NCBI GenBank assembly: GCA_018830295.1
Contig: JAHJSM010000001.1
Coordinates: forward strand, 257,980-321,979
Origin: Patescibacteria group bacterium
GTDB taxonomy: Bacteria > Patescibacteriota > Minisyncoccia > Portnoybacterales > UBA2143
Reading direction: 5' to 3'
Length of the DNA stretch: 64,000 bases
Position numbers and translations under genes: made by a program. The notes under the pieces are model-generated. The model did no database searches and had not been told where the DNA came from. It saw only the letters and a program-made list of their open reading frames with translations. Within the stretch, counting starts at the first letter, position 1. The number at the start of each line of letters is the position of its first letter. Of this stretch, positions 1-60,037 are shown piece by piece.

Positions 1-14
1 TTGTTTTTTTTGGT

Positions 15-551
15 TTAATAAACCTCTGCTGAATTAAAAGGCCACGCCCTAATCCACGCCCTGCCAATAATATTATCCTCCGGCAAAGCCCCCCATCTTC
101 GCGAATCTGAACTGGCTTGCCTATTATCGCCCAAAACAAAATATTCGTCTTCTCCTAATTTAATTTTTGTATTGCCCGAGGTAATTCTGTCCTTAGGTAA
201 ATACAACGACTCATCCAAAACCATCCCATCTGGAAAACTTTGATTGTAAATAAAAACCAGACCGTCCTTAATCTCAACTGTTTCGCCTGGCAATCCGACA
301 ATTCTTTTAATATAATACTGCGATGGATTAAGCGGATATTTAAAAACGACTACCTCGCTCCTTTGCGGCTCGCCAAGACGATAACCAATTTCGTTAATAA
401 TTAAATAATTCCCATTGCTAAAATTCGGCTCCATAGAAGCCCCATAAACAAAAAACGGCTGAATTAAATAATAGCGAACTGGAACAATGATCGCCAAGGA
501 AATAACCACGATTTTAACAATCTCCCATGCAAAAACAAACAATTTTCTCAT
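15..551 (-). CDS. lepB: signal peptidase I
   Basis: 178-aa ORF with N-terminal TM helix, catalytic Ser in 'GASMEP' and 'GDNRQASSDSR' box typical of S26 SPase I. Confidence 0.85.
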   Translation of the reverse strand: MRKLFVFAWEIVKIVVISLAIIVPVRYYLIQPFFVYGASMEPNFSNGNYLIINEIGYRLGEPQRSEVVVFKYPLNPSQYYIKRIVGLPGETVEIKDGLVFIYNQSFPDGMVLDESLYLPKDRITSGNTKIKLGEDEYFVLGDNRQASSDSRRWGALPEDNIIGRAWIRAWPFNSAEVY

Positions 552-618
552 ATAGGGACAATTTTAACTTATTTCACAAAAAAAATCAAATCTGATATAC
601 TTAATTTAACCTTAATCC

Positions 619-1713
619 ATGAACAACCATCTTAAACAAATCAACCGACTTATTAAAAAGGATTTATTTGACGAGCGGATTAAGAAACAAAGACAAGAGA
701 AAAAAAATAAAAAACGAAATATTGTCGTCTTTTCCGCGTTTATCCTAATCGCTCTTTTCCTTTCCGCGCTTTCTTGGCAAATATTGGACGCCTCTTACGC
801 GACGAACGAGACAAAAAAAGAAATTAGCCAAAACAAACCAACCCAAACAATAAAATCTATTTTGCCCTCGCAGGTTTTTAAAAAAGAAAAACCGGAAATA
901 AACATTTTAGCGTTAGGCAGACCGGGAGATGGTTATTCCGGTGGCAATTTAACGGATACAATTATCTTAATCCATCTCAAACAAAACGAGGAATCCGACA
1001 GCGGACAAAAAGCGTTTTTAATTTCTCTTCCGCGCGACTTGTTGGTCCAAATCCCTAATAGAGGCGGATTGACCAAAATAAACGCGCTTTATAGTTTGGT
1101 CGGGATTGAATGGCTCAAAGAAAAAATTTACGAGATTACGGGACTGGCGGTTGACCATCATATTATCGTTGACCTGGCCGTCGTTGAAGAAGTAATTTCA
1201 TTAGTTGACGGATTAAATGTTTTCGTCGAGCAAGACATCAACGACCCGTATTTCCCCGGTCCTAATTACTCATATCAAACATTCAACCTCTCTGCCGGCT
1301 GGAGATATTTGAACGGCGCGACGGCCTTGAGATATATTCGCACCCGCTATACTTCGCCCAACGGCGACTTTGACCGAATGTCCCGCCAACAGCAAGTCAT
1401 TCAACTCCTCAAACAAAAAGTCCTCGCTCTTAATCCCCTTTGGGATTTCCCAACTTATGTTAAGATATTCAGTAGTTTGCAGAGCCATATTGAAACCGAC
1501 TTGGGAATTATGGAAATGAAATCATTTTGGCAAACAGCCCAAAAAATCGGCTCGGACAATATTTCCAGCATCGTCATAGATAAAAAAGAAACAGGTCTTC
1601 TGATTGGCGGGCAAGTCCCCCTCGGACAATACACCGCCTCCGTCGTCTATCCAAAGGCGGGACAGGAAAATTATGATGAAATAAAAAATTTCATCAAACA
1701 AACAATAGAATAA
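619..1713 (+). CDS. LytR-CpsA-Psr (LCP) family protein
   Basis: 364-aa ORF with N-terminal TM anchor and LCP core motifs ('LISLPRDLLVQIP', 'KINALYS', 'GDFDRMSRQQQV'). Confidence 0.8.
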   Translation: MNNHLKQINRLIKKDLFDERIKKQRQEKKNKKRNIVVFSAFILIALFLSALSWQILDASYATNETKKEISQNKPTQTIKSILPSQVFKKEKPEINILALGRPGDGYSGGNLTDTIILIHLKQNEESDSGQKAFLISLPRDLLVQIPNRGGLTKINALYSLVGIEWLKEKIYEITGLAVDHHIIVDLAVVEEVISLVDGLNVFVEQDINDPYFPGPNYSYQTFNLSAGWRYLNGATALRYIRTRYTSPNGDFDRMSRQQQVIQLLKQKVLALNPLWDFPTYVKIFSSLQSHIETDLGIMEMKSFWQTAQKIGSDNISSIVIDKKETGLLIGGQVPLGQYTASVVYPKAGQENYDEIKNFIKQTIE

Positions 1714-1751
1714 GTTTGGGGACTGTCCCCTCTTGGGGACAGTCCCCAAAC
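1714..1751. repeat. perfect 17-bp-stem hairpin GTTTGGGGACTGTCCCC-TCTT-GGGGACAGTCCCCAAAC; member of the GGGAC(A/T)GTCCC palindromic element family
   Basis: Read directly; starts at the first base after the LCP stop codon, 18 nt upstream of the pth start; no T-run follows. Confidence 0.8.
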
Positions 1752-1768
1752 TAACAAACTAAATTTTT

Positions 1769-2299
1769 ATGAAACTTATAGTCGGTCTCGGCAACCCAGG
1801 CATACAATATGAAAAAACCCGCCATAATTTTGGATGGCGGGCTGTTGATGTATTGGCGCGGGAAATGGAAGCAAGTAGTTGGAAAATAGATCTTCGGTTT
1901 AACGCTTTTGTCGCGGAATGTTTTTTGAACGGCGAAAAAATCATTTTTGCCAAACCGCAAACTTTTATGAATAACTCCGGCATCGCCGTCAAATCAATCG
2001 CCGACTATTACAAAATCTTAACAGAAGAAATTTTAATTATCCATGACGAAATTGATTTGCCTTTAGGCGAAGCGAAAATCCAAAAAAACAGAGGCGCCGC
2101 TGGACACAACGGTATCAAGTCGGTTATTGAAAAATTAAAATCAAAAGATTTCATCAGAATGCGCCTCGGCATCAAATCCGACGAACAGAAAAATTTAAAA
2201 ACAGAAGAATTTGTTCTTCAAAATTTTACCGACAAAGAGGAAAAAATTGTCCAAAAGACAATAAAAAAGGCCATCCAGATTATAAGGACAGCCTTTTAG
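1769..2299 (+). CDS. pth: peptidyl-tRNA hydrolase
   Basis: 176 aa; 'GLGNPG..Y..TRHNFG' N-terminus and His active-site context typical of Pth. Confidence 0.9.
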   Translation: MKLIVGLGNPGIQYEKTRHNFGWRAVDVLAREMEASSWKIDLRFNAFVAECFLNGEKIIFAKPQTFMNNSGIAVKSIADYYKILTEEILIIHDEIDLPLGEAKIQKNRGAAGHNGIKSVIEKLKSKDFIRMRLGIKSDEQKNLKTEEFVLQNFTDKEEKIVQKTIKKAIQIIRTAF

Positions 2300-2314
2300 G
2301 TTTTTCACAAAAAT

Positions 2315-2554
2315 TCAACCTTCTTTGCGATTTGCTATAAATATAGCAATCGCGATGATTCCGAATCCAATCAGGGAATAATATGTTCCCTTGATCAAAT
2401 TATCGGAATCTGCTTTTATTCCTATGTCTATGTCTATGAAATTATTCTCCATTCCGCCGACGCTTCCAAAAACCAAAAACGCGCCGACTATTACAAGAAT
2501 AACCACAAAAGTGTTTAACATTTCTCTTGTTGTTCTCTTTTCTCTTTTCATCAT
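2315..2554 (-). CDS. small hypothetical membrane protein
   Basis: 79-aa ORF with two hydrophobic helices; no recognisable family. Confidence 0.35.
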   Translation of the reverse strand: MMKREKRTTREMLNTFVVILVIVGAFLVFGSVGGMENNFIDIDIGIKADSDNLIKGTYYSLIGFGIIAIAIFIANRKEG

Positions 2555-2592
2555 AACAACCCCCTTGTTAAAGTTGAAAAAAATTATAATTT

Positions 2593-2723
2593 AGTATTCG
2601 CAGACCTGCCAAGGAGCGCCAGAAACTAACTTGCAAAAGCAAACCGTCTCTGAACTCTGGCCTAACTGAACGGTAGGAGGGATTGTTCAGCCGTGGCCGC
2701 TCCCCAGACAGGTCCGCGAATAC
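2593..2723. ncRNA. candidate structured ncRNA, GC-rich island closed by a 16-bp terminal helix; family unknown
   Basis: 5' AGTATTCGCAGACCTG pairs with 3' CAGGTCCGCGAATACT (15/16); inner helix GGAGCGCC/GGCCGCTCC; two CTGAAC copies versus one GTTCAG allow alternative pairings; lies in a divergent intergenic region. Confidence 0.35.
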
Positions 2724-2768
2724 TAAAGATTTTAAGGAACTATATTTAACTGTCCACATTATAACAGA

Positions 2769-3659
2769 ATGAATAAATTTGTCAAGCCCCACGCAAAATA
2801 TTACAACGCTTTTAATCTTATTGGCGGAATTGGGCCTATATCTTTCAAAAAACTGTTGGGCTATTTTAAAACAATAGAAAACGCTTGGCAAGCCGAAACA
2901 GGCGAATTTGCAAAAGCCGGGATAGGCAAATCAGCTATTGAAAATATCCGCGCGAAAAGGTCTCAAATTAATCTTGATTTTGAAATGGAAAGATTAAGTA
3001 GGGAAGGGGTTGACCTCGTCACCATCCAAGACAAAAATTATCCGAAACTACTTAAAGAAATATACGCCCCACCCGCTATGCTTTATGTTAGAGGGAAAAT
3101 CTCGTCTGAAAACAATTTGGGGTTGGGTGTTGTCGGCTCAAGAAATGTTTCTCTTTACGGAAAACAAATAACACCCCTTCTCACCGCCGAGTTAGCCCAA
3201 GCGGGATTAACTATTATCAGCGGATTGGCAAAAGGCGTAGATACATTAGCTCATCAAGCGGCGCTTAAAGTCGGCGGAAATACGATCGCCGTTTTAGGTT
3301 GCGGAGTTGACTATAAGAGTATTTACCCGTATTGTAATCGTGACTTGGCAGAAAAGATAATTCAAAGCGGAGGCGCTGTCATTAGCGAATTTCCTCTTGA
3401 AACCCAACCACTCCCTCAATACTTCCCCCAACGCAATCGCATTATTTCCGGATTAAGCAAGGGCGTTTTGGTTATTGAAGCCGCGGAAAGAAGCGGCGCT
3501 TTGATTACGGCCAGAGACGCTTTAGAACAAAACCGAGATGTTTTCGCTTTACCCGGACCAATTTTCTCCGTCAATTCTTTCGGTCCGAATAATTTAATAA
3601 AGATGGGCGCTAAACTAATTAGCCAAGCCGACGACATTCTCCAAGAATTTAATTTATGA
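2769..3659 (+). CDS. dprA: DNA processing protein DprA/Smf
   Basis: 296 aa; Rossmann-like DprA core ('GVVGSRN.S.YG', 'GLAKGVDTLAHQAAL', 'RNRIISGLS.GVLVIEA..SGALITA'). Confidence 0.85.
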   Translation: MNKFVKPHAKYYNAFNLIGGIGPISFKKLLGYFKTIENAWQAETGEFAKAGIGKSAIENIRAKRSQINLDFEMERLSREGVDLVTIQDKNYPKLLKEIYAPPAMLYVRGKISSENNLGLGVVGSRNVSLYGKQITPLLTAELAQAGLTIISGLAKGVDTLAHQAALKVGGNTIAVLGCGVDYKSIYPYCNRDLAEKIIQSGGAVISEFPLETQPLPQYFPQRNRIISGLSKGVLVIEAAERSGALITARDALEQNRDVFALPGPIFSVNSFGPNNLIKMGAKLISQADDILQEFNL

Positions 3660-5689
3660 AACTAATTATCGTAGAAAGCCCTACAAAGGCAAAAATAATT
3701 TCCAAGTTTTTAGGCAAAAACTACAAGGTCTTGTCTTCTTTTGGGCATCTCCGCGATTTGCCTAAATCAGAACTTGGCATAGACACAGAAAAAAATTTCG
3801 CGCCCAAATATATTATTCCCGTCAAAGCGCGAAAGGCGGCTAACGAATTAAAAAAAGCCGCCAAAGAAGCAGATTTAATCATTCTTGCGACTGACGAAGA
3901 CCGCGAAGGAGAAGCCATCGCTTGGCATATTCTCCAAATTTTTGAAACCGCCAAACCCAAGGCGCATCAAAGAATTGTTTTTCACGAAATAACGGAAAAA
4001 GCGATTAAGGAATCGTTGGAAAATCCGAGAGAAATTGATATTAATTTAGTCAACGCCCAACAGGCGCGGCGAATTTTAGACCGCCTCGTCGGATACGAAC
4101 TCTCGCCGTTTTTGTGGAAAAAAGTAGTCAAAGGATTGTCAGCTGGAAGAGTCCAGTCAGTCGCCGTCCGCCTCATTGTTGACCGCGAAAGGGAAATAAA
4201 AGCGTTCAAACCGGAAGAATACTGGAGCGTTGAAGCGGAATTAAAAAAGCGCGATAACCCCAATCAATTCATCGCGCATCTTATCAAAACGGGCGATAAA
4301 AAAATTCCCAAAATGGGAATAAAAAATAAAGAAGAAGCGGACGCGATTTTAAAAAACCTTGATGGAGCCGAATACAAAATCGCCGCCGTGGAACGCAAGG
4401 AATTAAAAAAACATCCCATGCCGCCATACAAAACGAGCGTCCTCCAACAAGACGCGGCGCGCAAACTTGGCTTTTCCGCCAAACAAACAATGCGAATCGC
4501 CCAACAACTATACGAAAACGGTCACATCACCTATCATAGAACCGATTCGTTTAATATCGCCGCCGAAGCGCTCGCCTCTGCGCGCGAATTTATTAAAAAC
4601 AAACTCGGCGCGAAATATCTTCCAGACGCTCCCAAATTTTACAAAACAAATAAAAAAGGCGCGCAAGAAGCGCATGAAGCAATCCGCCCAACCCATCCAA
4701 AATATGAACCGTCCGAAATTAAGCAATATCTCAATCCGACCCAATACAAATTATATAATTTAATTTGGCAAAGATTTATCGCCAGCCAAATGAATCCCGC
4801 TATTTTGGATTCCGTCTCCGTTGATATTTTAGCGGAAAAAACAAAAGGCGTCCCACATACATTCCGAGCCAACGGTTCAACAATTAAATTTGACGGCTTT
4901 TTAAGAATTTGCCCGATGAAATTTAAAGAGAATGTTCTGCCCCCGCTCACGAAAGACGAACTCTTGAAATTAATTAAACTCATTCCTTCCCAACATTTCA
5001 CCCTCCCGCCCGCCAGATACAACGACGCCTCGCTTATTAAAATTTTGGAAGAATACGACATCGGCCGCCCCTCAACTTACGCGCCGACTATTAGCACAAT
5101 TCAAGACCGCGGCTATGTTAAAAAAGATGAGCAAAAAAGATTTATCCCCGCGGAAATCGGCTTTATCGTCATAGATCTGCTCAAGGAAAACTTTTCCCAA
5201 ATTGTTGATGTTGAATTTACCGCCAAAGTGGAAAACGATTTAGATAAAATAGCCGAAGGCAAACAAGAATGGCAAACGGTTATTAAAGAATTTTACGAAC
5301 CGTTCCATAAAAACCTGCTCAAAAAATATGACGAAGTAGAAAAGAAAATTCTTGATAAACCAACCGAAAAAAAATGCCCCGAATGCGGCAGCCCGATCGT
5401 AATTAAATTAGGAAGGTTCGGCGAGTTTTACGCCTGCTCCGCCTTCCCTAAATGCAAGCACGCCGCGCCAATTATCGTGCCAACCGGCGTCAAATGCCCT
5501 GAATGCGGAAAAGGCGACATCATTGAAAGAAAAACAAGAAGAGGAAAAACATTCTACTCCTGCTCTCAATACCCCAAATGCAAATTCGCCCTCTGGGACA
5601 AACCCACCGGCGAAAAATGCCCCGAATGCGGCGCCCTCATGGTAGAAAAAGGAAAAGCAATTAAATGTTCTAATAAAGAATGTAAATAG
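3656..5689 (+). CDS. topA: DNA topoisomerase I with C-terminal zinc ribbons
   Basis: 677 aa; TOPRIM N-terminus, active-site region 'GHITYHRTDS', three CPECG zinc-ribbon motifs at the C-terminus; 4-nt overlap with dprA. Confidence 0.9.
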   Translation: MKLIIVESPTKAKIISKFLGKNYKVLSSFGHLRDLPKSELGIDTEKNFAPKYIIPVKARKAANELKKAAKEADLIILATDEDREGEAIAWHILQIFETAKPKAHQRIVFHEITEKAIKESLENPREIDINLVNAQQARRILDRLVGYELSPFLWKKVVKGLSAGRVQSVAVRLIVDREREIKAFKPEEYWSVEAELKKRDNPNQFIAHLIKTGDKKIPKMGIKNKEEADAILKNLDGAEYKIAAVERKELKKHPMPPYKTSVLQQDAARKLGFSAKQTMRIAQQLYENGHITYHRTDSFNIAAEALASAREFIKNKLGAKYLPDAPKFYKTNKKGAQEAHEAIRPTHPKYEPSEIKQYLNPTQYKLYNLIWQRFIASQMNPAILDSVSVDILAEKTKGVPHTFRANGSTIKFDGFLRICPMKFKENVLPPLTKDELLKLIKLIPSQHFTLPPARYNDASLIKILEEYDIGRPSTYAPTISTIQDRGYVKKDEQKRFIPAEIGFIVIDLLKENFSQIVDVEFTAKVENDLDKIAEGKQEWQTVIKEFYEPFHKNLLKKYDEVEKKILDKPTEKKCPECGSPIVIKLGRFGEFYACSAFPKCKHAAPIIVPTGVKCPECGKGDIIERKTRRGKTFYSCSQYPKCKFALWDKPTGEKCPECGALMVEKGKAIKCSNKECK

Positions 5690-5698
5690 AATCAAATT

Positions 5699-7183
5699 AT
5701 GGCTGATATTCAGCAAATTATTGAACAATTTAAGAAAGATAATCCATTAGAGGACTCTGATGTTATTTTGAGGGCCTACCATTTTGCCGCGGAAGCGCAT
5801 CGGGGACAGAAAAGAAAATCAGGGGACGATTATATCACCCACTGTCTCGGCGCGGCTGAAACGCTCGTTCGCTTAAGAATGGATTCAGAGACCATCGCCG
5901 CTGGATTGCTTCATGATGTTTTGGATGATACAAAGGTCACGCCAAAACAAATGGAAAAAGAATTTGGCGCGAATATTTTGAAATTGGTCAACGGGGTCTG
6001 TAAAATTGGGAAACTTAAATATCGGGGCGAGGAAAGAGCGGCGGAAAATTTAAGAAAATTGTTTTTAGCGATGGCAGAAGACATCCGAGTTATTCTGATA
6101 AAATTCGCCGATCGCCTCCATAACATTAAAACGCTTGACGCCTTGCCCGCAGAAAAACAAAAGAGAATCGCTTTAGAAACATTGGAAATTTACGCTCCTT
6201 TAGCTGATCGTTTAGGTATCGGAGAAATTAAAGGACAACTGGAAGATTATTCTTTCGCGTTCATTAATCCAAAAGAGTATCAGGAAATATCAAGTAAAGT
6301 TAAAGGGAAATACGCCGAAAACATCAAATATCTTGAGAAAACAATCCCTCTGATTAAAAAGGTCTTAAGCGAAAAAGGAATTAAGGTTGTTGAAATTCAC
6401 GCGCGCGCGAAACATTATTACAGTTTATATAAAAAACTTTTGAAATATGATATGGATTGGCACAGAGTCTACGACTTAGTCGCCCTGCGAGTGATCGTCC
6501 CCGATATTGAAAGTTGTTACGCGACTCTGGGAATTGTCCATAAAAAATGGCGACCTCTCTTTGGTCGAATTAAGGATTATATCGCTCTTCCAAAATCAAA
6601 CGGATATAAATCTATTCACACAACCATTTTTTGCGACAAGGGGAAAATCACCGAACTTCAAATCCGCACGCCTCAAATGCACGAAGAAGCGGAATATGGT
6701 ATCGCCGCCCACTGGCATTACAAAGAAAATAAGGGCCTGCTTAAAACATACATCCAGCAAAAAATTCTCAAGCAGGCGCCAAAAAAAAGAGCGATCAAAA
6801 TGGCTGAAGAACTTGTTTGGGTAAAGCAGTTGCGAGAATGGCAAAAAGAAAAATTTTCTTCGCCGCGGGAATTTTTTGACTCGCTCAAAATTGATTTTCT
6901 CAAGGACCGAATTTTCGTCTTTACGCCCAAGGGCGATGTTATTGATTTGCCCGAAGGAGCCACTTCCATAGATTTCGCCTATCAAATCCATACTGACATT
7001 GGCCATCAATGTGTCGGCGTTAAAGTTGACGGGAAATTATGCCCGCTTTCCGAACCATTAAGAAACGGACAAATGGTTGATGTTATGACCCAAAAAAACA
7101 AAAAACCAAGCCGGGACTGGCTGAGATTTGTTAAGACCAACCAAGCGAAAAGCAGTATCAACGCCTGGTATCGTAAGAATTAA
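5699..7183 (+). CDS. rel: short RelA/SpoT-homologue (HD hydrolase + synthetase + TGS; no C-terminal ZFD/ACT region)
   Basis: 494 aa; HD motif 'HRGQKRKSGDDYITH', synthetase motif 'DYIALPKSNGYKSIHTTI', TGS 'VFTPKGDVIDLPEGATSIDFAY'; ORF ends about 40 aa after the TGS domain. Confidence 0.85.
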   Translation: MADIQQIIEQFKKDNPLEDSDVILRAYHFAAEAHRGQKRKSGDDYITHCLGAAETLVRLRMDSETIAAGLLHDVLDDTKVTPKQMEKEFGANILKLVNGVCKIGKLKYRGEERAAENLRKLFLAMAEDIRVILIKFADRLHNIKTLDALPAEKQKRIALETLEIYAPLADRLGIGEIKGQLEDYSFAFINPKEYQEISSKVKGKYAENIKYLEKTIPLIKKVLSEKGIKVVEIHARAKHYYSLYKKLLKYDMDWHRVYDLVALRVIVPDIESCYATLGIVHKKWRPLFGRIKDYIALPKSNGYKSIHTTIFCDKGKITELQIRTPQMHEEAEYGIAAHWHYKENKGLLKTYIQQKILKQAPKKRAIKMAEELVWVKQLREWQKEKFSSPREFFDSLKIDFLKDRIFVFTPKGDVIDLPEGATSIDFAYQIHTDIGHQCVGVKVDGKLCPLSEPLRNGQMVDVMTQKNKKPSRDWLRFVKTNQAKSSINAWYRKN

Positions 7184-8940: not shown

Positions 8941-9028
8941 GCCGGTGTGGCGGAATTGGCTATACGCGTGCGACTCAAAATCGTATGAACGAAAGTTCAT
9001 GTGGGTTCAACTCCCACCACCGGCACCA
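8941..9028 (+). tRNA. tRNA-Leu (anticodon CAA), class II with long variable arm, CCA encoded
   Basis: Acceptor GCCGGTG/CACCGGC; D-arm GTGGCGGAATTGGCTATACGC resembles E. coli tRNA-Leu; anticodon stem TGCGA/TCGTA with loop CTCAAAA; variable arm TGAACGAAAGTTCAT; T-arm GTGGG-TTCAACT-CCCAC; ends ACCA. Confidence 0.8.
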
Positions 9029-13907: not shown

Positions 13908-15353
13908 TTACAACCGAGGGAAGAGCGCCTCGGTTTTTTTGTTTTGCTTGATTTGCTCTAAAATCTTTTCGGCCGTTCGCGGCATAAATGGTTTGAGCAA
14001 AATGGCGATTTCTTTTAGGGAAACGAGCAAATCCGAGATTACTTCATTAAACTTTTTTTCGTCGTTCTTTTGCAATTCCCATGGTTTGTTTTTTTCAACA
14101 TACTCATCGCAAACCGAAATTAATTTCCAAACCGCCTCCAACGCTTCATTAAATTTAATCTCCCCAAGCGCTTTTTTATAATTTTCTTTGGTTAATTTAA
14201 TCTCTTCTTCTATCTTATGATTTATGATTCCTGATTCCTGATTCATTTTTATTTTCTCCGCCAAGGTTAAAACCCGGCTAACCAAATTCCCCAACCCATT
14301 CGCCAAATCGGCATTGTATCTTTCTTTAAGCCGTTCGGCGCTAAAATCACCATCTTCTGTGCTGGAAAATTCTCGCAAAACATAATAACGAACAACTTCG
14401 GCTCCGTATTTTTCAACAACATCAAAAGGATTAACAACATTGCCGATTGACTTGGACATTTTTTGCCCTTCAGAAGTAAAATACCCGTGAATAAAGACCT
14501 TTTTGGGCAAAGGCAGTTCGGCCGCCAAAAGCATCGCTGGCCACAAAAGAGTATGAAATCGCAAAATGTCTTTTCCGACGCAATGGATATCAGCCGGCCA
14601 ATACCGCTCAAAATTCTTTTCATTGCCGCCATATCCAAGCGCGGAAATATAATTGCAAAGCGCCTCAAACCAGACATAAATCGTTTGCGAAGCGTCCTTT
14701 TCAACGGGAATTCCCCAAGTAAGATTTTCCTTGGGTCGAGAGATACTCACATCCTCAACCCCTTGTTTAATTAAACCCAAAATCTCTTTTTTCCTTTTTT
14801 CGGGGACAATGCCTAATTCATTTTTTTCAATCATCTCCTTTACTCTCGGAATGTATTTTGATAATTTGAAAAAATAGTTTTCTTCCTCTAAAACATCTGG
14901 TTCTTTTTTGTGTATCGGGCATTTGCCGTCAACCAAATCGCTTTGATTAAGATACGCCTCGCACCCGGCGCAATAAAGCCCCTCGTATTTTCCTTTATAA
15001 ATATCTCCTTTGCTATTCAAAATATCCCAGATTTTATAAACAGACGGCCAATGGCGTTTTGAGTCGCTTGTTCTAATAAAATCATCGTTTGATATATTCA
15101 AAACCTCTGTTAATCTCTTAAATTCAGATGTGTTCTCGTCAATAAGCGCCTGAACAGATTTCCCGGTTTTTTCAGCCGTCCTAACTATTTTTATCCCATG
15201 CTCATCCGCCCCCGTTAAAAAGAAAACATCATCCCCCAACTGACGATAATAGCGCGCCAAAACATCCGCCTGAACCATCTCCAAGGCATGTCCAATATGA
15301 GGAACCGAATTAACATAAAAAATACTGGTGGTGATATAGAATTTATTCTTCAT
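13908..15353 (-). CDS. metG: methionyl-tRNA synthetase (short form)
   Basis: 481 aa; 'HIGHAL' and 'KMSKSIGN' class I motifs, CxxC zinc knuckle. Confidence 0.9.
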   Translation of the reverse strand: MKNKFYITTSIFYVNSVPHIGHALEMVQADVLARYYRQLGDDVFFLTGADEHGIKIVRTAEKTGKSVQALIDENTSEFKRLTEVLNISNDDFIRTSDSKRHWPSVYKIWDILNSKGDIYKGKYEGLYCAGCEAYLNQSDLVDGKCPIHKKEPDVLEEENYFFKLSKYIPRVKEMIEKNELGIVPEKRKKEILGLIKQGVEDVSISRPKENLTWGIPVEKDASQTIYVWFEALCNYISALGYGGNEKNFERYWPADIHCVGKDILRFHTLLWPAMLLAAELPLPKKVFIHGYFTSEGQKMSKSIGNVVNPFDVVEKYGAEVVRYYVLREFSSTEDGDFSAERLKERYNADLANGLGNLVSRVLTLAEKIKMNQESGIINHKIEEEIKLTKENYKKALGEIKFNEALEAVWKLISVCDEYVEKNKPWELQKNDEKKFNEVISDLLVSLKEIAILLKPFMPRTAEKILEQIKQNKKTEALFPRL

Positions 15354-16206
15354 TTTTTAAACAAAAACTATCCAACGGACTGCGAATATTTTTTAATTTA
15401 TTGGTAGCCACCTTCGTATAAATTTGTGTTGTTTCTAACCTTTTATGCCCCAATAATTCTTGAATATATCTTATACTTACACCGCTTTCAAGTAAATGCG
15501 TCGCGAAACTATGCCGTAAACTATGGCAACTGACTTGCTTTTTTATGCCAGATTTTTTTAACGCGCTACTAAAAGTTTTTTGAACTGCCCGTTCCGTTAA
15601 TTTCCCTCCTCTCAAACTTTCAAAAACATAATTATTAGCTTCTTTGGTTTTGATATATTTCTCCAAAACACCCGCAACTTTTTCAGATAAAATAGTTATT
15701 CTATCTTTCGCTCCTTTGGCTTGCCTAATTCTAACTGCTCTGCCGCCAAAATCCAAATCTTGAACCTTAACATTAACAACCTCTGAAACGCGCAGCCCAG
15801 ACGAATACATTAAAGCCAATAATAATTTGTGTTTAACATTTTGAACAGTGGCTAAAATATTCGCTATTTCTTTTTTGCTTAAAACTTCCGGCAATCTCTT
15901 TGCCTTTTTGGCTCTTGGTATATTTATAAAAAATTTTCGGCGGAGAATTTTCTCAAAATAAAATTTCAACGCGCTATAGGCGGTATTTAAGGTCGAACTT
16001 GATTTTCTATTATCGGATAATTTTTCCAAATAAATTCTAATGTCCGCCGTGTTAATTGTTTTCGGATTTTTATTTGCGAATTTTAATATGTTCGTGATAT
16101 AATACAGGTAGGATTTAATAGTTTTATCGCTGAACCTCCGCAATTTCATTTCCTGCTTTAATTGCAATATTGGATTCTTGCTCGGATATTGATAATTACT
16201 GTTCAT
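15343..16206 (-). CDS. tyrosine site-specific recombinase, Xer-like (XerC/XerD family)
   Basis: 287 aa; catalytic R ('LRVSE'), 'HSLRHSFAT' box, 'LGH', Tyr in 'IYTKV'; R-to-H spacing is Xer-like, not IntI-like; overlaps the metG start by 11 nt. Confidence 0.8.
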   Translation of the reverse strand: MNSNYQYPSKNPILQLKQEMKLRRFSDKTIKSYLYYITNILKFANKNPKTINTADIRIYLEKLSDNRKSSSTLNTAYSALKFYFEKILRRKFFINIPRAKKAKRLPEVLSKKEIANILATVQNVKHKLLLALMYSSGLRVSEVVNVKVQDLDFGGRAVRIRQAKGAKDRITILSEKVAGVLEKYIKTKEANNYVFESLRGGKLTERAVQKTFSSALKKSGIKKQVSCHSLRHSFATHLLESGVSIRYIQELLGHKRLETTQIYTKVATNKLKNIRSPLDSFCLKNEE

Positions 16207-27758: not shown

Positions 27759-29297
27759 TTACATTTTCTCTGGCGCTTTGATGCCCATTAAGTCCAATGT
27801 GTTTTTTAAAACAATCTTCGTCGCTTTAACTAAACAAATTCTTGCTTGGCTCAACTCCTTATTTTCATCATCCAAAACGCGGCATTTTTCATAAAATCTA
27901 TGAAAGGCGTTCGCCAATTCCATAGAATATTGAGGCAACCGCTGAACCTGATAATCCTTCGCTATATCCTCAACAATTTCAGGAAATTTAATTAAATGGC
28001 GAATAAGATTTAACTCTTCCAGATGAGTTAACTTCATCAGGGACAGTCCCCGAAAATCAGGGACAGTCCCCGATTTCGCTAAAATTCCGCAGATTCTCGC
28101 GTGGGCATATTGGACATAAAAGACGGGGTTTTTGTTTGATTGTTCCCGCGCCAAATCCATATCAAAATTCAAATGGGTATCGGGAGATTTTTGCAAAAAG
28201 AAAAATCGCGTCGCATCCGCGCCAACCTTTTCAATCAACTCGTCCATTTCCACATAGACCCCCGCCCGTTTTGACATTCTCTTTTTCTCGCCTTTTTCTA
28301 AAATTGTAACGAACTGCAAAAGAACCGTTTCCAATTTTCCTTTATGTCCGATCGCTTCCACCCCCGCCGCTAATCCCGCAACATCACCATGGTGGTCGGC
28401 TCCCCAAACATTAATTACCCGAGTAAATTTCTTCTCGTTGAATTTGCGCCAATGAAAAGCGATATCGCCCGCCAAGTATGTTTTGTTTCCGTCTTTCTTG
28501 ACCAAAACCCTATCTCTTGTGTCGCCGAGTTCAGACGACTTGAACCATCGCGCGCCGTCCTTTTCGTAAAAAAATCCTTTCTTTTCCAAAAAATCCAAAA
28601 CCTCATCCACCAAACCAGATTGATAAATCTCTGACTCCAAAGCCCATTCGTCATATTTAATCCCCAATTTATCTGTCGTCTTGCGGATTAAATTTTCAAT
28701 AATATATTTCGCCGCCGCTTTCCCTGCCTCACGCGCGTCTTTTCCTTTATTTTTTTTATTTAGTTCGTCAATATATCCCCCCTTATAAACCGCTTCGCTA
28801 TCTTTCAAAACAGAATGTCCCAAGGCCTCAATCTGCATTCCATGGTCATTGACATAATACGCCCTTTCAACATTAAATCCGGACTTGCTCAAAACGCCCG
28901 CCAAAACATCCCCAAAGGGCCCGCCCCTTCCGTTCGCCACTGTCAAAGGTCCTGTCGGATTGGCGGAAACAAACTCAACCTGAACTTTTTCGCCCTTACC
29001 AACGCCGATTTCTCCGTAACGAGCGCCTTTTTTAATAATCTCCGCCAGTTCATCTAATAATATTTTTTTTGACAAAGTAAAATTAATAAAACCAGGACCC
29101 GCTACCTCCACTTTTTCAAAAGCGGGATGAACTTCCAATTTCGCGACAATTTTTCGCGCGTCAACCTTCATCCGCAAAGCGACATTTGTGGAATAGTCCC
29201 CAAAATCAGAATTACCCGGCCGCTCCAAAAACGCCTCACCCCCAACAACCCCCTCAATAATTTTCTTAACTTCATCTCTGATCATATCTTCTATCAT
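27759..29297 (-). CDS. argS: arginyl-tRNA synthetase
   Basis: 512 aa; 'ANPTGPLTVANGRG' HIGH-equivalent, C-terminal DALR anticodon-binding domain 'YVQYAHARI'. Confidence 0.9.
   Translation of the reverse strand: MIEDMIRDEVKKIIEGVVGGEAFLERPGNSDFGDYSTNVALRMKVDARKIVAKLEVHPAFEKVEVAGPGFINFTLSKKILLDELAEIIKKGARYGEIGVGKGEKVQVEFVSANPTGPLTVANGRGGPFGDVLAGVLSKSGFNVERAYYVNDHGMQIEALGHSVLKDSEAVYKGGYIDELNKKNKGKDAREAGKAAAKYIIENLIRKTTDKLGIKYDEWALESEIYQSGLVDEVLDFLEKKGFFYEKDGARWFKSSELGDTRDRVLVKKDGNKTYLAGDIAFHWRKFNEKKFTRVINVWGADHHGDVAGLAAGVEAIGHKGKLETVLLQFVTILEKGEKKRMSKRAGVYVEMDELIEKVGADATRFFFLQKSPDTHLNFDMDLAREQSNKNPVFYVQYAHARICGILAKSGTVPDFRGLSLMKLTHLEELNLIRHLIKFPEIVEDIAKDYQVQRLPQYSMELANAFHRFYEKCRVLDDENKELSQARICLVKATKIVLKNTLDLMGIKAPEKM
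28036..28073. repeat. tandem direct repeat 2 x ATCAGGGACAGTCCCCGA (AA spacer) inside argS coding sequence
   Basis: Read directly; encodes 'SGTVPD' and 'RGLSLM' using the two copies in different frames. Confidence 0.8.
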
Positions 29298-29802: not shown

Positions 29803-30220
29803 GGGGATGATTGGCTTCGATGAAAGTCAATTTCTTAATAAGCAAGACGAGTTTAATCGAACACTCGTTAAAGATCGATTAAGATAATAAATGTCAATTT
29901 ATTTTCAAAGGCAAGGAACGCGGTAGCTTCGCTATTTAGCGCTCCGAACCTGGCTTTAGCTGTCGCCTAAATAATTAGTCAACAGCCGTTCAAACCTTTG
30001 ATTCCTGATAGAGGGATTTGAATGTCATTTTTCAGGATAAGCGGACAAAATTATCTCGCTTTGACCGCCGACAACTTAGGGGTAAGAATTAGAAATTTTT
30101 TGTTTAGTTTTAAGTTTTTAATTCTTTAGTTCGCTTTTGGCGAACAAATTAAACTAATCTAATCTTGTAGAATTATTAAGAATCAACTTTTAGACGCGGG
30201 TTCAATTCCCGCCATCTCCA
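29803..30220 (+). ncRNA. ssrA: tmRNA (transfer-messenger RNA)
   Basis: Starts GGGGATGATTGGCTTCGA 5 nt after the smpB stop; ends with tRNA-like GACGCGGGTTCAATTCCCGCCATCTCCA (acceptor GGGGATG/CATCTCC, CCA not encoded); internal tag ORF ends ...CTGGCTTTAGCTGTCGCCTAA (L-A-L-A-V-A-stop). Confidence 0.8.
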
Positions 30221-30245
30221 CTCGGTAAAAAGCAAAATAAAAACT

Positions 30246-32286: not shown

Positions 32287-32394
32287 AGATATAGATTATA
32301 AATTAAAACGCCAACACAATCAATCTATTGTACCCATCAGGCGCATACAAAATATTGATTTATTTTATATTTCTGTGTAATAGGTGCGCATTTT

Positions 32395-32520
32395 CCCGAC
32401 CACTTTTTACTTGGCGATTTTTCAATTTGATAAAAAAGGTCTGACATTGCAAGTAGAGACATTTCCGAAGGTCTCGCTTGAAAGGTCGGACCTTTTTTAA
32501 AATAACAATTTTTTAATCAC
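32395..32520. repeat. direct repeat copy A (CCCGACCACTTTT...AATTTGATAAAAAAGGTCTGAC...TTTTTAATCAC) with a 45-bp internal insertion relative to copy B
   Basis: Read directly; about 85% identical to 34141-34221 excluding the insertion. Confidence 0.65.
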
Positions 32521-32524
32521 CTAA

Positions 32525-32881
32525 CTAAATATCAAAATGTTTTTTCAAATAATCTTTTATCTGTTTAATAATTTTTACATCCGCTATGCCAATTTTATTA
32601 ATAAATCTTAAATAATCAAAAGAGCAAACATTGTAAACCTTAATAATTGAATCGCTAATTAATTTATTATCATTGTTTTTGGTAATTAAAATATCATCCG
32701 CCATCTTGTTCTTTAAATTTGAAGTCAACGGAACAACCGTAATTAAGTTCGTTTTTCTAATTTGTTTTTCGCTTTCAATAATAACAGCAGGGCGTTTGCC
32801 TTGATATTCGTATCCAAAACTTGGATCAAAATTAACTAAAAATATCTCTCCTTGTTTAAGTAGTTTTTTGTCTATGCTCAT
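32525..32881 (-). CDS. MazF/PemK-family endoribonuclease toxin-like protein
   Basis: 118 aa; 'GEIFLVNFDPSFGYEYQGKRPAVII...VVPLTS' matches the PemK/MazF SH3-like barrel signature. Confidence 0.75.
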   Translation of the reverse strand: MSIDKKLLKQGEIFLVNFDPSFGYEYQGKRPAVIIESEKQIRKTNLITVVPLTSNLKNKMADDILITKNNDNKLISDSIIKVYNVCSFDYLRFINKIGIADVKIIKQIKDYLKKHFDI

Positions 32882-33633
32882 AAATTTTCGTAATATTCAA
32901 CCTCTTTCTTTGAGATTAGACCCAAATCTTTCAAAACATCATTCGCCCCAGTTTGAATAAAGTCAGACAATTCGTCTGGCTTTTTTAGGACATCCACCAC
33001 CAAACCATTAATAAGATGCTCCGTATAATCGTTTTCGTGAATATAAATCGGAGGATAGTCGCGGCTTGATTCTGATAATAAGACGACCTGTTTGTTTTGT
33101 TTATCAAAAAACAATTTTTTAATATTGGCGCAACCATCAATAATTGAAACTACGTAATCACCGCTTTTCGCTCTTTCTCTTTTTTTATCCACCAAAACCA
33201 AGTCGCCCTCTTCTATGCTTTTTCCCTCCTCGGATACTTTAGCCCGATTCATAGAATCTCCCACCGCCCGCAGAACAAAAATATCTTTGACCCTTTTCGC
33301 GAGAGAACGACCAATAATGCCGATTGAAACTTTAACAAACTCGCTCGCTGGAATATCATCGGCGAAAGAAAGCGCCTGCCCGCAATTAGCGTCGCCTAAA
33401 ATAGGAAGCGAAATCAATCCGTCTTTTTGATTAACTCCGGATTTGGTCTTTACTATTTTATCTCCCTCCGCGTTCACCAAAAGCAAGCCCGCCTCAATCA
33501 ATTTGCCGAGATGATGTTTAATCTTTTGAGGGCTGCCCTTCTCTCCAATTAATTCGCCAATCCGACGCAAAGTCAAATCAGCCAAATTATTATCTTCCGC
33601 CAAACCTAAAATTTTTTGTTGAATTTTGTGCAT
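32878..33633 (-). CDS. lexA: LexA-like repressor (winged HTH + S24 peptidase) with C-terminal extension
   Basis: 251 aa; N-terminal LexA DNA-binding domain, cleavage-site-like 'LGDANCGQALS', S24 Ser-Lys dyad ('GDSMN' ... 'NIKKL'); about 37 extra C-terminal residues; 4-nt overlap with the mazF-like gene. Confidence 0.75.
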   Translation of the reverse strand: MHKIQQKILGLAEDNNLADLTLRRIGELIGEKGSPQKIKHHLGKLIEAGLLLVNAEGDKIVKTKSGVNQKDGLISLPILGDANCGQALSFADDIPASEFVKVSIGIIGRSLAKRVKDIFVLRAVGDSMNRAKVSEEGKSIEEGDLVLVDKKRERAKSGDYVVSIIDGCANIKKLFFDKQNKQVVLLSESSRDYPPIYIHENDYTEHLINGLVVDVLKKPDELSDFIQTGANDVLKDLGLISKKEVEYYENL

Positions 33634-33870
33634 AATTAAATTCTACACCCATTCTTATCCCCAGTCAAGTAAATCTTGACACAAGGTAAGCGTTGACAAA
33701 GAAATTAATTTGGAGTAAACTAAAATATAAGCCTAAAAATAAAACAGGGTCAACGCTAAATGGTCGAACCCTGTTTGAGAATATGTTAGGTCGATTCCTA
33801 GACATATTAACCTTAATTAACAGGATAACACATTTTCAATTTTTGGGAAAATAATATTGAGATTACTAAT

Positions 33871-34077
33871 ATGAATAAATATTATGTTAATAGAAACGCG
33901 CAAGCGAACGGAGATCACGAAGTACATAAATTTGGTTGCCGATTTATGCCTAATCCAGAAAACAGACAGTATCTTGGTGAATTCGCAACATGTCGCAGCG
34001 CAGTTGCAGAAGCAAAAAAACATTATCGACAATCAAATGGATGTTATTATTGCTCTAACGCATGCCATACACAATAG
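33871..34077 (+). CDS. small Cys-rich protein (putative zinc-binding), divergent from lexA
   Basis: 68 aa; Cys pattern C..C...CYYC..AC; followed by a good intrinsic terminator; the overlapping opposite-strand ORF is less plausible. Confidence 0.45.
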   Translation: MNKYYVNRNAQANGDHEVHKFGCRFMPNPENRQYLGEFATCRSAVAEAKKHYRQSNGCYYCSNACHTQ

Positions 34078-34091
34078 TTAAAGGTGTGTCA

Positions 34092-34127
34092 CCCCTGTCG
34101 CGCTTTGTGTGACGGGGGTATTTTTTT
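34092..34127 (+). terminator. intrinsic terminator CCCCTGTC-loop-GACGGGGG + TATTTTTTT
   Basis: 8-bp stem with one G-U, T-run follows. Confidence 0.55.
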
Positions 34128-34140
34128 GGCAAAAAGGCTC

Positions 34141-34221
34141 CCGACCACTTTTCTCTTTGCAATTTTTTAATTTGATAAAAAAGGTCTGACCTTTTTAAAT
34201 TGGCGGCTTTTTAATCACTTT
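34141..34221. repeat. direct repeat copy B (CCCGACCACTTTTCTCTTTGCAATTTTTTAATTTGATAAAAAAGGTCTGACCTTTTT...TTTTTAATCAC)
   Basis: Read directly; partner of 32395-32520. Confidence 0.65.
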
Positions 34222-34310
34222 CTGTTCATGGGGACAGTCCCCCGTCTGCGGGGGCTGCCCCCATCATCTGCTTTTCTAAAAAGTTCCTGACACCTTTTTA
34301 CTTTATAATA

Positions 34311-34919: not shown

Positions 34920-34922
34920 AGT

Positions 34923-37640: not shown

Positions 37641-37765
37641 AGTTAATCTTAACGAGGTTCGACCTACGAGCGCGACCTTAAGAAATGTCGCTACTCTTTA
37701 TGTCAAACCTCTTTGCTTACCATCCCATCCCCCTCATTTTACCCCAACCGACAAGACAAATCAAT

Positions 37766-37800
37766 CAAAAAACCCGCTTGGGGGGCGGGCAAAAAATACC
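37766..37800 (-). terminator. hairpin CCCGC-TTGGGGG-GCGGG flanked by A/T runs (bidirectional)
   Basis: Read directly, downstream of the 348-aa gene. Confidence 0.45.
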
Positions 37801-37813
37801 AGCTAAAACTAAA

Positions 37814-42218: not shown

Positions 42219-42272
42219 TTTTTAAGTATAGCATATTTGACCCAAAACCAAAAAAAAGATAAAATAAGAAAC

Positions 42273-47165: not shown

Positions 47166-48818
47166 TTGTCAAGTATTATGTTTAAAAATAAATTCAAAAT
47201 AAAAATCTTCTTTTCTGTTTGTCTTGTTTTTGTTTTCTGTCTCCCTTCTCTCGCCAGCGCTGGCGATGTTGTGATTAACGAAATTATGGTCGGTCAAACT
47301 GGCGCGGCTAAAAATGAATTTATTGAATTATACAATTCTACTGAAAACAACATTGATTTGACAGAATACAAGTTAAAAAAGAAAACAAAGAGCGGCGCTG
47401 AAAGCAATTTAGTTAGTTCGTCCAAATTTATCGGTATAATACCCGCGCGCGGGTATTTTTTAATCGCCCATCCTGATTACAAAAATACAATCAACGCCGA
47501 CCTCGCCTATTCGGGCTCCTCGTATTCTATCGCAAGCGACAATACCATTATTCTCTATAACAAAGAAGATACCGTTGTTGATAAGGTTGGCTATGGTGAA
47601 GAAGTTGTTGATTTTGAGAATCAAGCCGCCCCTAATCCAGAAAACAACCAAAGTATAGAGCGGCAACCAGTCGGATATGATTCAAACAACAATAGCGCTG
47701 ATTTTGTTATTCAAAGCACGCCCAATCCGCAAAACTCGGGCGGACAAGAAGAGATAGGGACAGTCCCCGCAACAGGGACTGTCCCTATCTCTTCCGCCGT
47801 CCCCACTCCCGTCGTTAACAATCCCCCTATTGCCAATGCCGGGTCGGATATGGTCGCTCTAATTGGACAGGAAATACTATTTGACGGCTCCCTGTCTTCT
47901 GACCCCGATAATGACGAGTTGTCGTATTTTTGGAACTTTGGCGATGGCGCGACCGACACTGAACAATTATCCAAACATACTTATCTTTATCCGGGACAAT
48001 ATATCGCAAGTTTGCTCGTTAACGACGGAGAATTTTCCGATTTGGCTCTTGTGAGCATTAATATCTACAATCAATCAGTTATTATCAGCGAATTTATGCC
48101 CGCTCCCGAAGAAGGAGACGCGGAAAATGAATGGATCGAATTATTTAACCAAAGCGACCAAATCGCTAATTTAACAAATTGGCAATTAGACGACCAAGAA
48201 GGCGGAAGTTCGCCTTTTGTTTTTCCAGCAAACAGTTTCATTGCGCCTAATCAATTTCTGGTTTTAATCAGGCCGATTACAAAAATCGCCCTCAATAACG
48301 ACAATGACCAAGTCCGCCTTATTTACCCCGACGGCTCTTTAGCCGCCGAAGTTGGATATTTAGCGGAAAAGAAAGAAGGGTTTTCAATCGCTTTTGACGG
48401 CTCTGAATATTTTTGGACAAAAACCCCCACGCCCGGTTCGCCTAATATTATTACCTCTAACAACCTAAACGCAAAAGAAGAAAATCTATCCGCCAACAAT
48501 CCCGACCCTATCGCCCAACAAGCCCAAAATACGCCAGAAAACATAGTCGCGGTTAATCTCAATCAAAGCGAGAGTTTTTCCGCCCTAAACGCGCCTGCGG
48601 AAAATGTCGGAAGCATAGAAAACAAAAAAACAGTTCTTTCGGAAACAGTCAACCCCCAAAACCAAACCGCATCTCTCGCCCAATCCGCCCAACCAAACCA
48701 AAAATCAACCTTAATTCTAATCATCTCAATCATAATCTCCACCGCCCTCCTCGCCAGTTGGGGATTGATTATGCTGTCAAAGAGAAAATCACTTAATAAT
48801 ATTACGCATAATGAATAA
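47166..48818 (+). CDS. lamin-tail-domain (LTD) surface protein with signal peptide, central PKD-like domain and C-terminal TM anchor
   Basis: 550 aa; two LTD-like modules ('VVINEIM...NEFIELYN', 'VIISEFMP...NEWIELFN'), PKD-like 'DPDNDELSYFWNFGDGATDTE', C-terminal hydrophobic anchor + 'SKRK'; probable true start ATG 47178. Confidence 0.75.
   Translation: MSSIMFKNKFKIKIFFSVCLVFVFCLPSLASAGDVVINEIMVGQTGAAKNEFIELYNSTENNIDLTEYKLKKKTKSGAESNLVSSSKFIGIIPARGYFLIAHPDYKNTINADLAYSGSSYSIASDNTIILYNKEDTVVDKVGYGEEVVDFENQAAPNPENNQSIERQPVGYDSNNNSADFVIQSTPNPQNSGGQEEIGTVPATGTVPISSAVPTPVVNNPPIANAGSDMVALIGQEILFDGSLSSDPDNDELSYFWNFGDGATDTEQLSKHTYLYPGQYIASLLVNDGEFSDLALVSINIYNQSVIISEFMPAPEEGDAENEWIELFNQSDQIANLTNWQLDDQEGGSSPFVFPANSFIAPNQFLVLIRPITKIALNNDNDQVRLIYPDGSLAAEVGYLAEKKEGFSIAFDGSEYFWTKTPTPGSPNIITSNNLNAKEENLSANNPDPIAQQAQNTPENIVAVNLNQSESFSALNAPAENVGSIENKKTVLSETVNPQNQTASLAQSAQPNQKSTLILIISIIISTALLASWGLIMLSKRKSLNNITHNE
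47753..47791. repeat. inverted repeat AGATAGGGACAGTCCC-CGCAACA-GGGACTGTCCCTATCT inside the LTD gene (in-frame, encodes IGTVPATGTVPIS)
   Basis: Read directly; arms match the intergenic copy at 55448-55488. Confidence 0.8.
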
Positions 48819-55447: not shown

Positions 55448-55488
55448 AGATAAGGACAGTCCCTCGCCGCGAGGGACTGTCCCTATCT
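55448..55488. repeat. inverted repeat AGATAAGGACAGTCCCTCG-CCG-CGAGGGACTGTCCCTATCT (GGGAC(A/T)GTCCC family) in the ychF 5' region
   Basis: Read directly; one mismatch between arms. Confidence 0.8.
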
Positions 55489-55586: not shown

Positions 55587-55620
55587 GAGAGGACACCCCT
55601 CGCGGCGAGGGGTGTCCTCG
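55587..55620. repeat. variant palindrome GAGAGGACACCCCTCG-CGG-CGAGGGGTGTCCTCG
   Basis: Read directly; same architecture as 55448-55488 with core ACACCCC in place of ACAGTCCC. Confidence 0.7.
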
Positions 55621-56029: not shown

Positions 56030-56147
56030 ATCCCCCTCCTTTTTCTTTTTATATTTTTATGTTAAAAATACCACTCCCAAATTAGCACGAAAACCAAAAC
56101 TTGTCAATAAAATTGGGTAATGTTGGCAGGAACGCCAAAAGAAATTA

Positions 56148-56224
56148 AAGGTCAGACCTTTCAAAACAACATTATCGCGATTGCTTATTATTTAGTGACA
56201 AACTGATAGAAAGGTCTGACCTTG
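56148..56224. promoter_or_regulatory. two copies of the palindrome AAAGGTC(A/T)GACCTTT about 60 bp apart in a divergent promoter region (candidate operator pair)
   Basis: 56148-56162 and 56209-56224 read directly; the same palindrome recurs at 32432-32498 and 34178-34197. Confidence 0.4.
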
Positions 56225-56248
56225 ATTTCTTAATTGAATTTCTTAAAA

Positions 56249-59850: not shown

Positions 59851-59930
59851 ATTTTTTAGTTTATTTTTTTATTTAACAACTCTTATAATTATTATAATTT
59901 AATTAAATTTATAATCATTATCATTAGGAC

Positions 59931-60033
59931 TGTGGAAAACTGGATAACTTATTTTTTTGGCTTGTTTATTATATTTATTAAGTAATTTTTATTGAATAAT
60001 TTGTGGATATTATGATATTTATTATGTGGATAA
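59931..60033. promoter_or_regulatory. DnaA-box cluster in the dnaA-dnaN spacer (oriC candidate): TGTGGAAAA 59931, TGGATAACT 59941, TGTGGATAT 60002, TGTGGATAA 60025
   Basis: Matches to TTATCCACA/TGTGGATAA consensus read directly in an extremely AT-rich 187-bp spacer. Confidence 0.6.
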
Positions 60034-60037
60034 AATG

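Follow-up and report, generated by a model that had tools for sequence, protein, structure and literature searches.

Few known genomes are as compact as those of CPR/Patescibacteria, in which genes overlap and spacer DNA is nearly absent. The stretch analyzed here (hereafter the window) comprises 64,000 nucleotides of such a genome with a GC content of ~39%; its strain is the same as that of assembly GCA_018820055.1, and relatives matched through ArgRS and neighboring genes are labelled Candidatus Portnoybacteria. Near its left end, between lytR (619-1713) and pth (1769-2299), lies a perfect hairpin built on the palindromic core GGGACWGTCCC, and an earlier note on this DNA proposed that it belongs to a dispersed family of short palindromic elements found both between genes and in frame within them. 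Is there such a family, do its copies come and go between strains, and which known repeat system does it resemble?

GGGACWGTCCC is present as eight exact matches in the window (1719, 1736, 28040, 28060, 34231, 47757, 47775 and 55473), compared with 0 in 100 dinucleotide-preserving shuffles. Allowing up to 2 mismatches gives 17 matches against 4.4 expected, and the motif tops the ranking of 11-nt odd palindromes by frequency, above AT-rich ones. Enrichment over a composition-matched expectation is thereby upheld within the 64-kb window and, together with the turnover of copies between near-identical strains, it supports a dispersed family as opposed to chance. Widening the core to GG-N-CWG-N'-CC raises the count to 14 against 0.67 ± 0.81 expected and takes in the variant GGGGCWGCCCC and a second family, AGGTCWGACCT. 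Each unit consists of a GC-rich palindrome 11-13 nt long, GG(G)-N-CWG-N'-(C)CC, that forms a mini-hairpin when single-stranded (GGGGACWGTCCCC). Three core variants occur within the clade (GGGACWGTCCC, GGGGCWGCCCC and AGGTCWGACCT), and the N/N' position covaries among them in paired changes that leave each unit palindromic.

Every GGGACWGTCCC copy is paired, with its partner 4-9 nt away, and there are no singleton cores. All five core loci are doublets, four inverted and one direct, which is the arrangement of REP/REPIN elements; the earlier note had counted six loci, the last of which, (f), does not contain the core. First-family units measure 11-17 nt and doublets 31-47 nt, and since two units with their local flanks make up a nested palindrome, each arm is a mini-hairpin in itself. 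The core alone is common to the first family, with heterogeneous loops and flanks. Folded as RNA, elements (a)-(f) reach -29.5 to -39.4 kcal/mol (z -6.4 to -9.7) and are the strongest hairpins in the window; among strong hairpins (stem ≥15 bp) only these elements have palindromic arms, which ordinary terminator-like hairpins lack. Their density is ~1 locus per 10 kb (~5-7 loci per 64 kb). At gathering threshold Rfam 15 reports tmRNA and tRNA and no other match in the window, and it gives no match at the elements in the window or at the doublets in 13 loci of other phyla. The tmRNA gene adjoins smpB (29803-30223) and a tRNA gene lies at 8941-9025.

Element (a) occupies positions 1713..1752 as GGGGACTGTCCCC-tctt-GGGGACAGTCCCC with AGTTT/AAACT flanks. 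Its arms (1713-1730 and 1735-1752) pair perfectly around a 4-nt loop and the RNA folds to -38.4 kcal/mol (z -9.3). The perfect hairpin at a stop codon described in the earlier note stands, with the stem corrected from 17 to 18 bp and its first base being the last base of the lytR stop codon. The hairpin belongs to a 57-nt segment (1712..1768) that is present in the window and in contig L268, the filled allele, and missing from nine other strain contigs, in which the flanks are 98-100% identical and lytR and pth overlap by 4 nt (ATGA). Since (a) splits a gene pair that overlaps in nine other strains, a hairpin is unnecessary at this junction. To the right of the insertion, 564 nt contain zero substitutions, and to the left 56 nt (1653-1708) contain 13 clustered substitutions compared with 4 in the preceding 1650 nt. 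This patch, seen against nine strains otherwise ~99.8% identical, alters the last LytR residues, includes a perfect 11-bp hairpin (1672-1698) and could be either an imported patch or a templated multi-nucleotide mutation. Upstream of lytR, 14 nt of the window correspond in L273 to an unrelated 72-nt insert of the GGGGCWGCCCC type. Over ~2.3 kb, the window and L273 differ by 1 isolated SNP, 2 hairpin-element indels and the 13-substitution patch.

Both in-gene copies do lie in hypervariable linkers, in ArgRS and in an LTD protein, with the frame kept. Element (b) (28036..28073, minus strand) was reported as a tandem direct pair inside argS, and we find an 18-nt repeat, ATCAGGGACAGTCCCCGA x2, with a period of 20, which encodes SGTVPDFRGLSL between the QYAHARI motif and the DALR domain; its fold reaches -30.4 kcal/mol and contains a central U.U mismatch. 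One unit is translated as SGTVP and the other, in a different frame, as RGLSL, and in-frame copies thus do not always add GTVP as had been claimed. Relatives with ~80% identical ArgRS (L123 and L124) hold decayed versions of the 20-nt-period repeat at the same site, so the argS copy is old and was kept perfect or re-perfected in the window lineage; these versions, and a linker just ~2 codons longer than in element-free relatives, contradict the idea of a recent insertion. In L222, which is 99% identical over argS, the center of the first core is flipped from T to A. Within positions 1-6179 of that contig no similarity to the window remains upstream of argS, a break that reflects either a rearrangement or a chimeric assembly. 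The ArgRS metagenome scan gave few close relatives, and empty orthologous sites were taken from exact-protein look-ups.

Unrelated strong in-frame hairpins occupy the ArgRS linker elsewhere, with stems of 28 bp in L125 (of the AGGTCWGACCT type), 19 bp in L126 and 23 bp in L230, and many CPR argS linkers are without a hairpin. The argS linker of a distant Patescibacteria member (L249, 880-930) contains a C/G-homopolymer hairpin with an in-frame TAA, which could mark a split or pseudogenised argS or a homopolymer sequencing error. A hammerhead-like CUGAUGA after the argS copy was discarded as a coding coincidence that is missing in L222.

Element (d) (47748..47794, plus strand) is in frame (EEIGTVPATGTVPISS) within the low-complexity hypervariable linker that separates the LTD and PKD domains, before the PKD of an LTD-PKD-LTD surface protein. 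The inverted pair noted earlier inside the LTD gene turns out to have perfect 20-nt arms (47748-47767 and 47775-47794) around a 7-nt loop, and folds to -39.4 kcal/mol. Its left 20 nt, GAAGAGATAGGGACAGTCCC, are retained in L264 (97% identical) and L265, where a GGGGGCTGCCCCC/GGGGGCAGCCCCC pair comes next. In place of this different palindrome pair the window has a right arm of equal length that matches the left arm exactly as its reverse complement, the signature of an intra-strand template switch. L276 shares the window sequence at 100% identity. A zeta-toxin gene (48811-49539) follows the LTD gene in the window and L264; it is missing from L265, in which yebC is directly next. Several LTD-PKD-LTD homologues are fused to ComEA-type helix-hairpin-helix domains. 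Elsewhere in the window, a 1024-aa ORF (42192-45266) with two T2SSE (PilB-like ATPase) stretches and AAA_16 at residues 753-883 could be a fusion, an intein-like insert or two joined genes.

Element (c) (34228..34264; -33 kcal/mol) agrees with its description as a variant pair, ATGGGGACAGTCCCCC / GGGGGCTGCCCCCAT, and is a hybrid of two core types that joins an GGGACAGTCCC arm to an GGGGCTGCCCC arm, the partner of the core being a GGGGGCTGCCCCC arm. GGGGCWGCCCC is also paired in L264, L265 and L273. The element lies downstream of a HEPN/AbiU2-like gene (34311-34919, minus strand) and near an MmeI-like restriction-modification gene, for a link to which evidence was not found. Element (e) (55448..55488; -34.9 kcal/mol) is a 41-nt near-perfect palindrome with 20-nt arms, 25-65 nt upstream of the start of ychF (54356-55423, minus strand); the inverted pair placed there by the earlier note is confirmed, though the left core carries one mismatch (AGGACAGTCCC). 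Also correct is the observation that (d) and (e) have extended flanks in common, namely AGATA[G/A]GGACAGTCCC...GGGACTGTCCCTATCT. Between a 108-aa gene and ychF, (e) is accompanied by (f) (55589..55619; GAGGACACCCCTCGC-g-GCGAGGGGTGTCCTC; -29.5 kcal/mol), which has the inner stem CCCTCGC-S-GCGAGGG in common with (e) and is its diverged relative. At this site L277 and L278 have the single hairpin (e), compared with two hairpins and 100 nt in the window: in L277 both (f) and the 100 nt between (e) and (f) are missing, and the synteny of L278 with the window ends right after the hairpin. L265, 99.25% identical in neighboring genes, has an unrelated hairpin upstream of ychF.

The second family is longer. 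Its element at 56143..56228 (~86 nt) has palindromic ends, TTAAAGGTCAGACCTTTC / GAAAGGTCTGACCTT (the right end, opposite TTAAAGGTCAGACCTTTC, also given as GAAAGGTCTGACCTTTAA), and a conserved 46-nt interior. Copies that are >90% identical and have unrelated flanks are found in L222 (95-166) and L283 (7814-7885), giving a total of three unrelated loci with AAAGGTCWGACCTTT ends and interior conserved; the L283 copy parts two genes that overlap at the empty sites of L281 and L282. On sequence grounds this family has demonstrably been copied between loci, and it behaves like a REPIN or MITE, with two inverted palindromic units and a conserved spacer. A variant pair, AGGTCTGACAT ... AGGTCGGACCT, lies at 32431..32499 at the 3' end of an S24-PemK module, with ~50 nt of left flank in common with 34145-34195, and a single palindrome, TAAAAAAGGTCTGACCTTTTTAA, lies at 34176..34198 as the sole singleton. 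Scanning viral contigs for AAAGGTCWGACCTTT returned 78 singletons, which is about chance level for a 15-mer and therefore uninformative.

The ~50-nt segment CCCGACCACTTTT...AATTTGATAAAAAAGGTCTGAC (32395-32446 and 34145-34195) ends both modules of a ~5.5-kb defence/toxin island (32287-37813) located between holA and a DUF3048 gene. The island encodes an MmeI-like type IIG RM enzyme, a HEPN/AbiU2-like protein, a small ORF, an S24 LexA-like peptidase and a PemK toxin, and is missing in the relative L128. A split ileS in L128 was traced to a run of N in the scaffold, not an element. The gene order dnaN, dnaA, rpmH, rnpA, yidC (58750-62750) and a cumulative GC-skew turn near 60 kb point to a probable replication origin at ~61.5 kb; in the relative L281, a phage capsid gene replaces dnaN beside dnaA.

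Presence/absence differences between relatives, which the earlier note had proposed to look for, are found: flanks are 97-100% identical among the strains compared, yet copies are gained, lost or replaced at the element sites. The main difference between near-identical strains here is the gain and loss of hairpin repeats, not point mutation, and the sequence comparisons indicate clearly that elements turn over far faster than point mutations build up. Copies demonstrably survive only at permissive sites, that is, a few intergenic spacers and hypervariable in-frame linkers between domains. Contigs L268, L279 and L280 terminate inside hairpins. The cores are essentially restricted to the close clade, and ~300 kb of loci from more distant Patescibacteria contain hardly any. 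Distant Patescibacteria/CPR members have nested palindromes of their own (for example, GAGGT-NNN-ACCTC), many of them in frame within ORFs of 420-590 aa. The 64-kb window and the neighboring loci examined showed no transposase, RAYT or HUH gene; the sole recombinase seen there is XerC/D-like (15343-16206). None of the junctions examined has a clean target-site duplication; the insertions come with small replacements or divergent patches.

Doublets of the same core are not confined to this clade. GGGACWGTCCC doublets occur at at least 120 loci in many phyla with lineage-specific spacers (L001-L120), the planctomycete form being GGGACWGTCCC-ATTTTCG...CGAAAAT-GGGACWGTCCC, and direct pairs outnumber inverted pairs 142 to 37 among the matches listed. 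GGGTCWGACCC doublets likewise recur across many bacterial phyla, and doublets of both cores are also found in a giant-virus MAG and in phage contigs (viral loci L129-L200). Viral contigs contain 39 doublet loci of GGGACWGTCCC and 33 of GGGTCWGACCC, which is 4-15 times above the four control palindromes (GGCAGWCTGCC, 3; GGGAGWCTCCC, 2; GGGACSGTCCC, 8; GGGCAWTGCCC, 8), an enrichment that is only suggestive because the two high counts owe part of their size to a few families of related contigs. If the recurrence of one core across phyla is not convergence, it would point to a shared mechanism.

The reading we favor, at a probability of roughly 55%, is that the elements are miniature REP/REPIN-like repeats, that is, non-coding, hairpin-forming, selfish or near-neutral DNA. 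It is supported by the non-random family, the strain turnover, the templated rewriting of (d), the copying of the second family, the permissive-site pattern, the lineage restriction and the precedent of intragenic REP dimers. Under this reading, copies would spread via single-stranded hairpin intermediates, and the agent may be either a Y1/HUH-type enzyme working in trans, in the way that RAYTs serve REPINs, or the machinery of replication. Intra-strand template switching could later extend, perfect or overwrite a copy in place, as the rewritten arm of (d) suggests, and homologous recombination would carry copies from strain to strain.

Different hairpins at one site could mean that structure is selected there, and this occupation of the same sites by different hairpins across lineages makes structure-selected function the main rival, although an unlikely one. 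It holds that the elements are functional RNA or DNA structures whose sequence is free to turn over, serving as terminators, attenuators, 3' mRNA stabilisers, promoter-proximal regulators or signals for translation pausing or decoupling at domain boundaries. The strong but differing hairpins in the ArgRS linker and upstream of ychF are as expected, as are the palindrome-preserving paired changes that distinguish GGGACWGTCCC, GGGGCWGCCCC and AGGTCWGACCT. Moreover, operons end just before (c), 32431-32499 and 34176-34198, and T-runs follow the doublets, in a terminator-like manner, in at least one viral contig of low GC content (L138). However, (a) splits a gene pair that overlaps in nine other strains, argS copies are decayed in close relatives and many CPR argS linkers are hairpin-free, the window's ordinary terminators are not nested palindromes, and the copies have sequence in common beyond structure. 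Canonical intrinsic terminators are rejected, given that (a), (b) and (d) have no sense-direction U-tract and two of them are inside ORFs; a terminator scan flagged (a) on the antisense strand only, with a weak tail.

Rather improbable is a pure mutational by-product, in which template switching at quasi-palindromes and gene conversion between copies act with no dedicated enzyme. In (d) the left arm has served as template for an inverted copy, the right arm, with net length unchanged, the substitution cluster beside (a) holds a perfect hairpin, the A/T center of a core is flipped between L222 and the window, and the insertions resemble replacements, not cut-and-paste events. Nevertheless, template switching is unable to put the same 11-13-mer at unrelated loci, and copying between sites is needed to account for the 86-nt second family, whose interior is conserved at three loci.

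We are more doubtful still of a wider claim, that an active single-strand hairpin process in Patescibacteria, and perhaps in bacteria and phages generally, keeps writing GGG-N-CWG-N'-CCC nested palindromes into tolerant sites, including protein linkers, with the cross-phylum core reflecting conserved recognition by a widespread enzyme or replication component and not independent accidents.

It is very unlikely that the core is a duplex recognition sequence, such as a DNA-uptake signal, the operator of a dimeric regulator or a site linked to the MmeI-like RM gene. A palindromic core is expected for dimer binding, the window encodes DprA and the LTD-PKD protein, several homologues of which have ComEA-type helix-hairpin-helix domains, the strains are recombination mosaics, and inverted pairs and entry into permissive coding sites are also features of Neisseria uptake sequences. 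A literature search by sequence returned only eukaryotic primers and GntR/FadR operators; GGTCTGACC resembles operators of this type and is contained in PdhR/LldR boxes. Against this, every core is in a hairpin-forming pair with no singletons, the N/N' covariation suggests pairing over base-specific protein contacts, the copies lie in coding linkers and at 3' ends and not in promoters, and the same core occurs in unrelated phyla. The density of ~1 locus per 10 kb is roughly ten times below that of known uptake sequences, and an uptake sequence is rejected on the palindromic core, the pairs-only arrangement and the ~5-7 loci per 64 kb. An operator role for the family is likewise rejected, with every core in such a pair and several copies intragenic or 3' of genes.

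The chance that coincidence or assembly artefact explains the family is negligible: some contigs do break at hairpins, but the shuffles gave 0 matches, independent ENA, NCBI, JGI and Logan assemblies contain identical sequence, and the in-frame copies are also found in independently predicted proteins.

If the REP/REPIN-like reading holds genome-wide, selfish DNA of this kind reaches even ultra-small episymbiont genomes, and the linkers between the ArgRS catalytic and DALR domains and between LTD and PKD would be rewritten by palindromes at the DNA level, not by selection at the protein level. The elements would also provide a ready strain-typing marker, explain some assembly breaks in CPR MAGs and raise the concrete question of which enzyme or replication process handles the hairpins.

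How do the elements compare with known systems? Quasi-palindrome template-switch mutations, as in the Ripley model, and small hairpin-associated inversions or replacements, as in chloroplast hairpin inversions, resemble our case in that the reverse complement of one arm takes the place of its partner at unchanged length, as seen for (d), and in clustered substitutions that make perfect stems. Template switching explains reshaping and not how one core reached many loci. DNA uptake sequences (Neisseria DUS and Haemophilus USS) are likewise over-represented 10-12-mers that spread by recombination and often lie in inverted pairs behind genes or at permissive positions in coding DNA; unlike the core they are non-palindromic, with singletons common and ~1 per kb, whereas we see pairs only at ~1 locus per 10 kb. 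Correia elements and other MITEs are dispersed non-autonomous repeats with inverted ends and filled/empty polymorphism, and the ~86-nt second family fits them loosely. Here, however, a clean target duplication, of TA or otherwise, is missing, neither an IS-derived terminal repeat nor a parent IS was identified, and the first family has essentially no interior. TIGR arrays (PMC12045711) were set aside, being tandem arrays in contrast to the isolated doublets seen here.

Rickettsia palindromic elements (RPEs; Ogata et al. 2000) are similar in being palindromic repeats of a reduced genome that occur both between genes and in frame in surface or linker regions of essential genes. They differ in size, with 100-150 bp adding 30-50 residues compared with 38-47 nt for the in-gene elements here, in having no sequence similarity to them, and in that our in-gene copies add ~0-9 codons and mostly overwrite existing hypervariable linker. 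The earlier note had likened the family to REP and Correia elements and especially to the in-frame Rickettsia elements. The first comparison is the one that lasts, with REP dimers, BIMEs and REPINs closest, and those with Correia elements and RPEs are weak, given units of 11-17 nt and doublets of 31-47 nt as against 100-150 nt, with both separate terminal inverted repeats and a clean target-site duplication missing. Its remark that such elements had not been described for this kind of genome agrees with our literature search, which found no paper tying Patescibacteria to REP, REPIN or MITE elements.

The likeness to REP dimers, BIMEs and REPINs (Bertels & Rainey 2011, PMC3116915; Di Nocera et al. 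2013, PMC3733652) lies in short GC-rich stem-loop units, in doublets that fold into a larger hairpin as a nested palindrome, in a dispersed and mostly extragenic distribution with some dimers in flexible linkers inside ORFs, and in lineage-specific families, several per genome. Intragenic REP dimers in flexible linkers that encode 10-30 residues have already been described (PMC3733652), and the 86-nt second family has the size and layout of a REPIN, with a 46-nt conserved spacer. Differences are the unit length (11-17 nt here compared with 20-40 nt in REPs), the heterogeneous loops and flanks of the first family and the host, a Patescibacteria genome of ~0.75 Mb. The GTAG/CGTC tag that defines the REP super-families (PMC3733652) is missing, the flanks here being AGTTT, ATC/TCG, CAT, GATA and AGATA. 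Because this tag is missing, the units are much shorter and a RAYT is seen neither in the window nor in the neighboring loci, we regard the elements as a new variant of the REP/REPIN kind, not a member of it.
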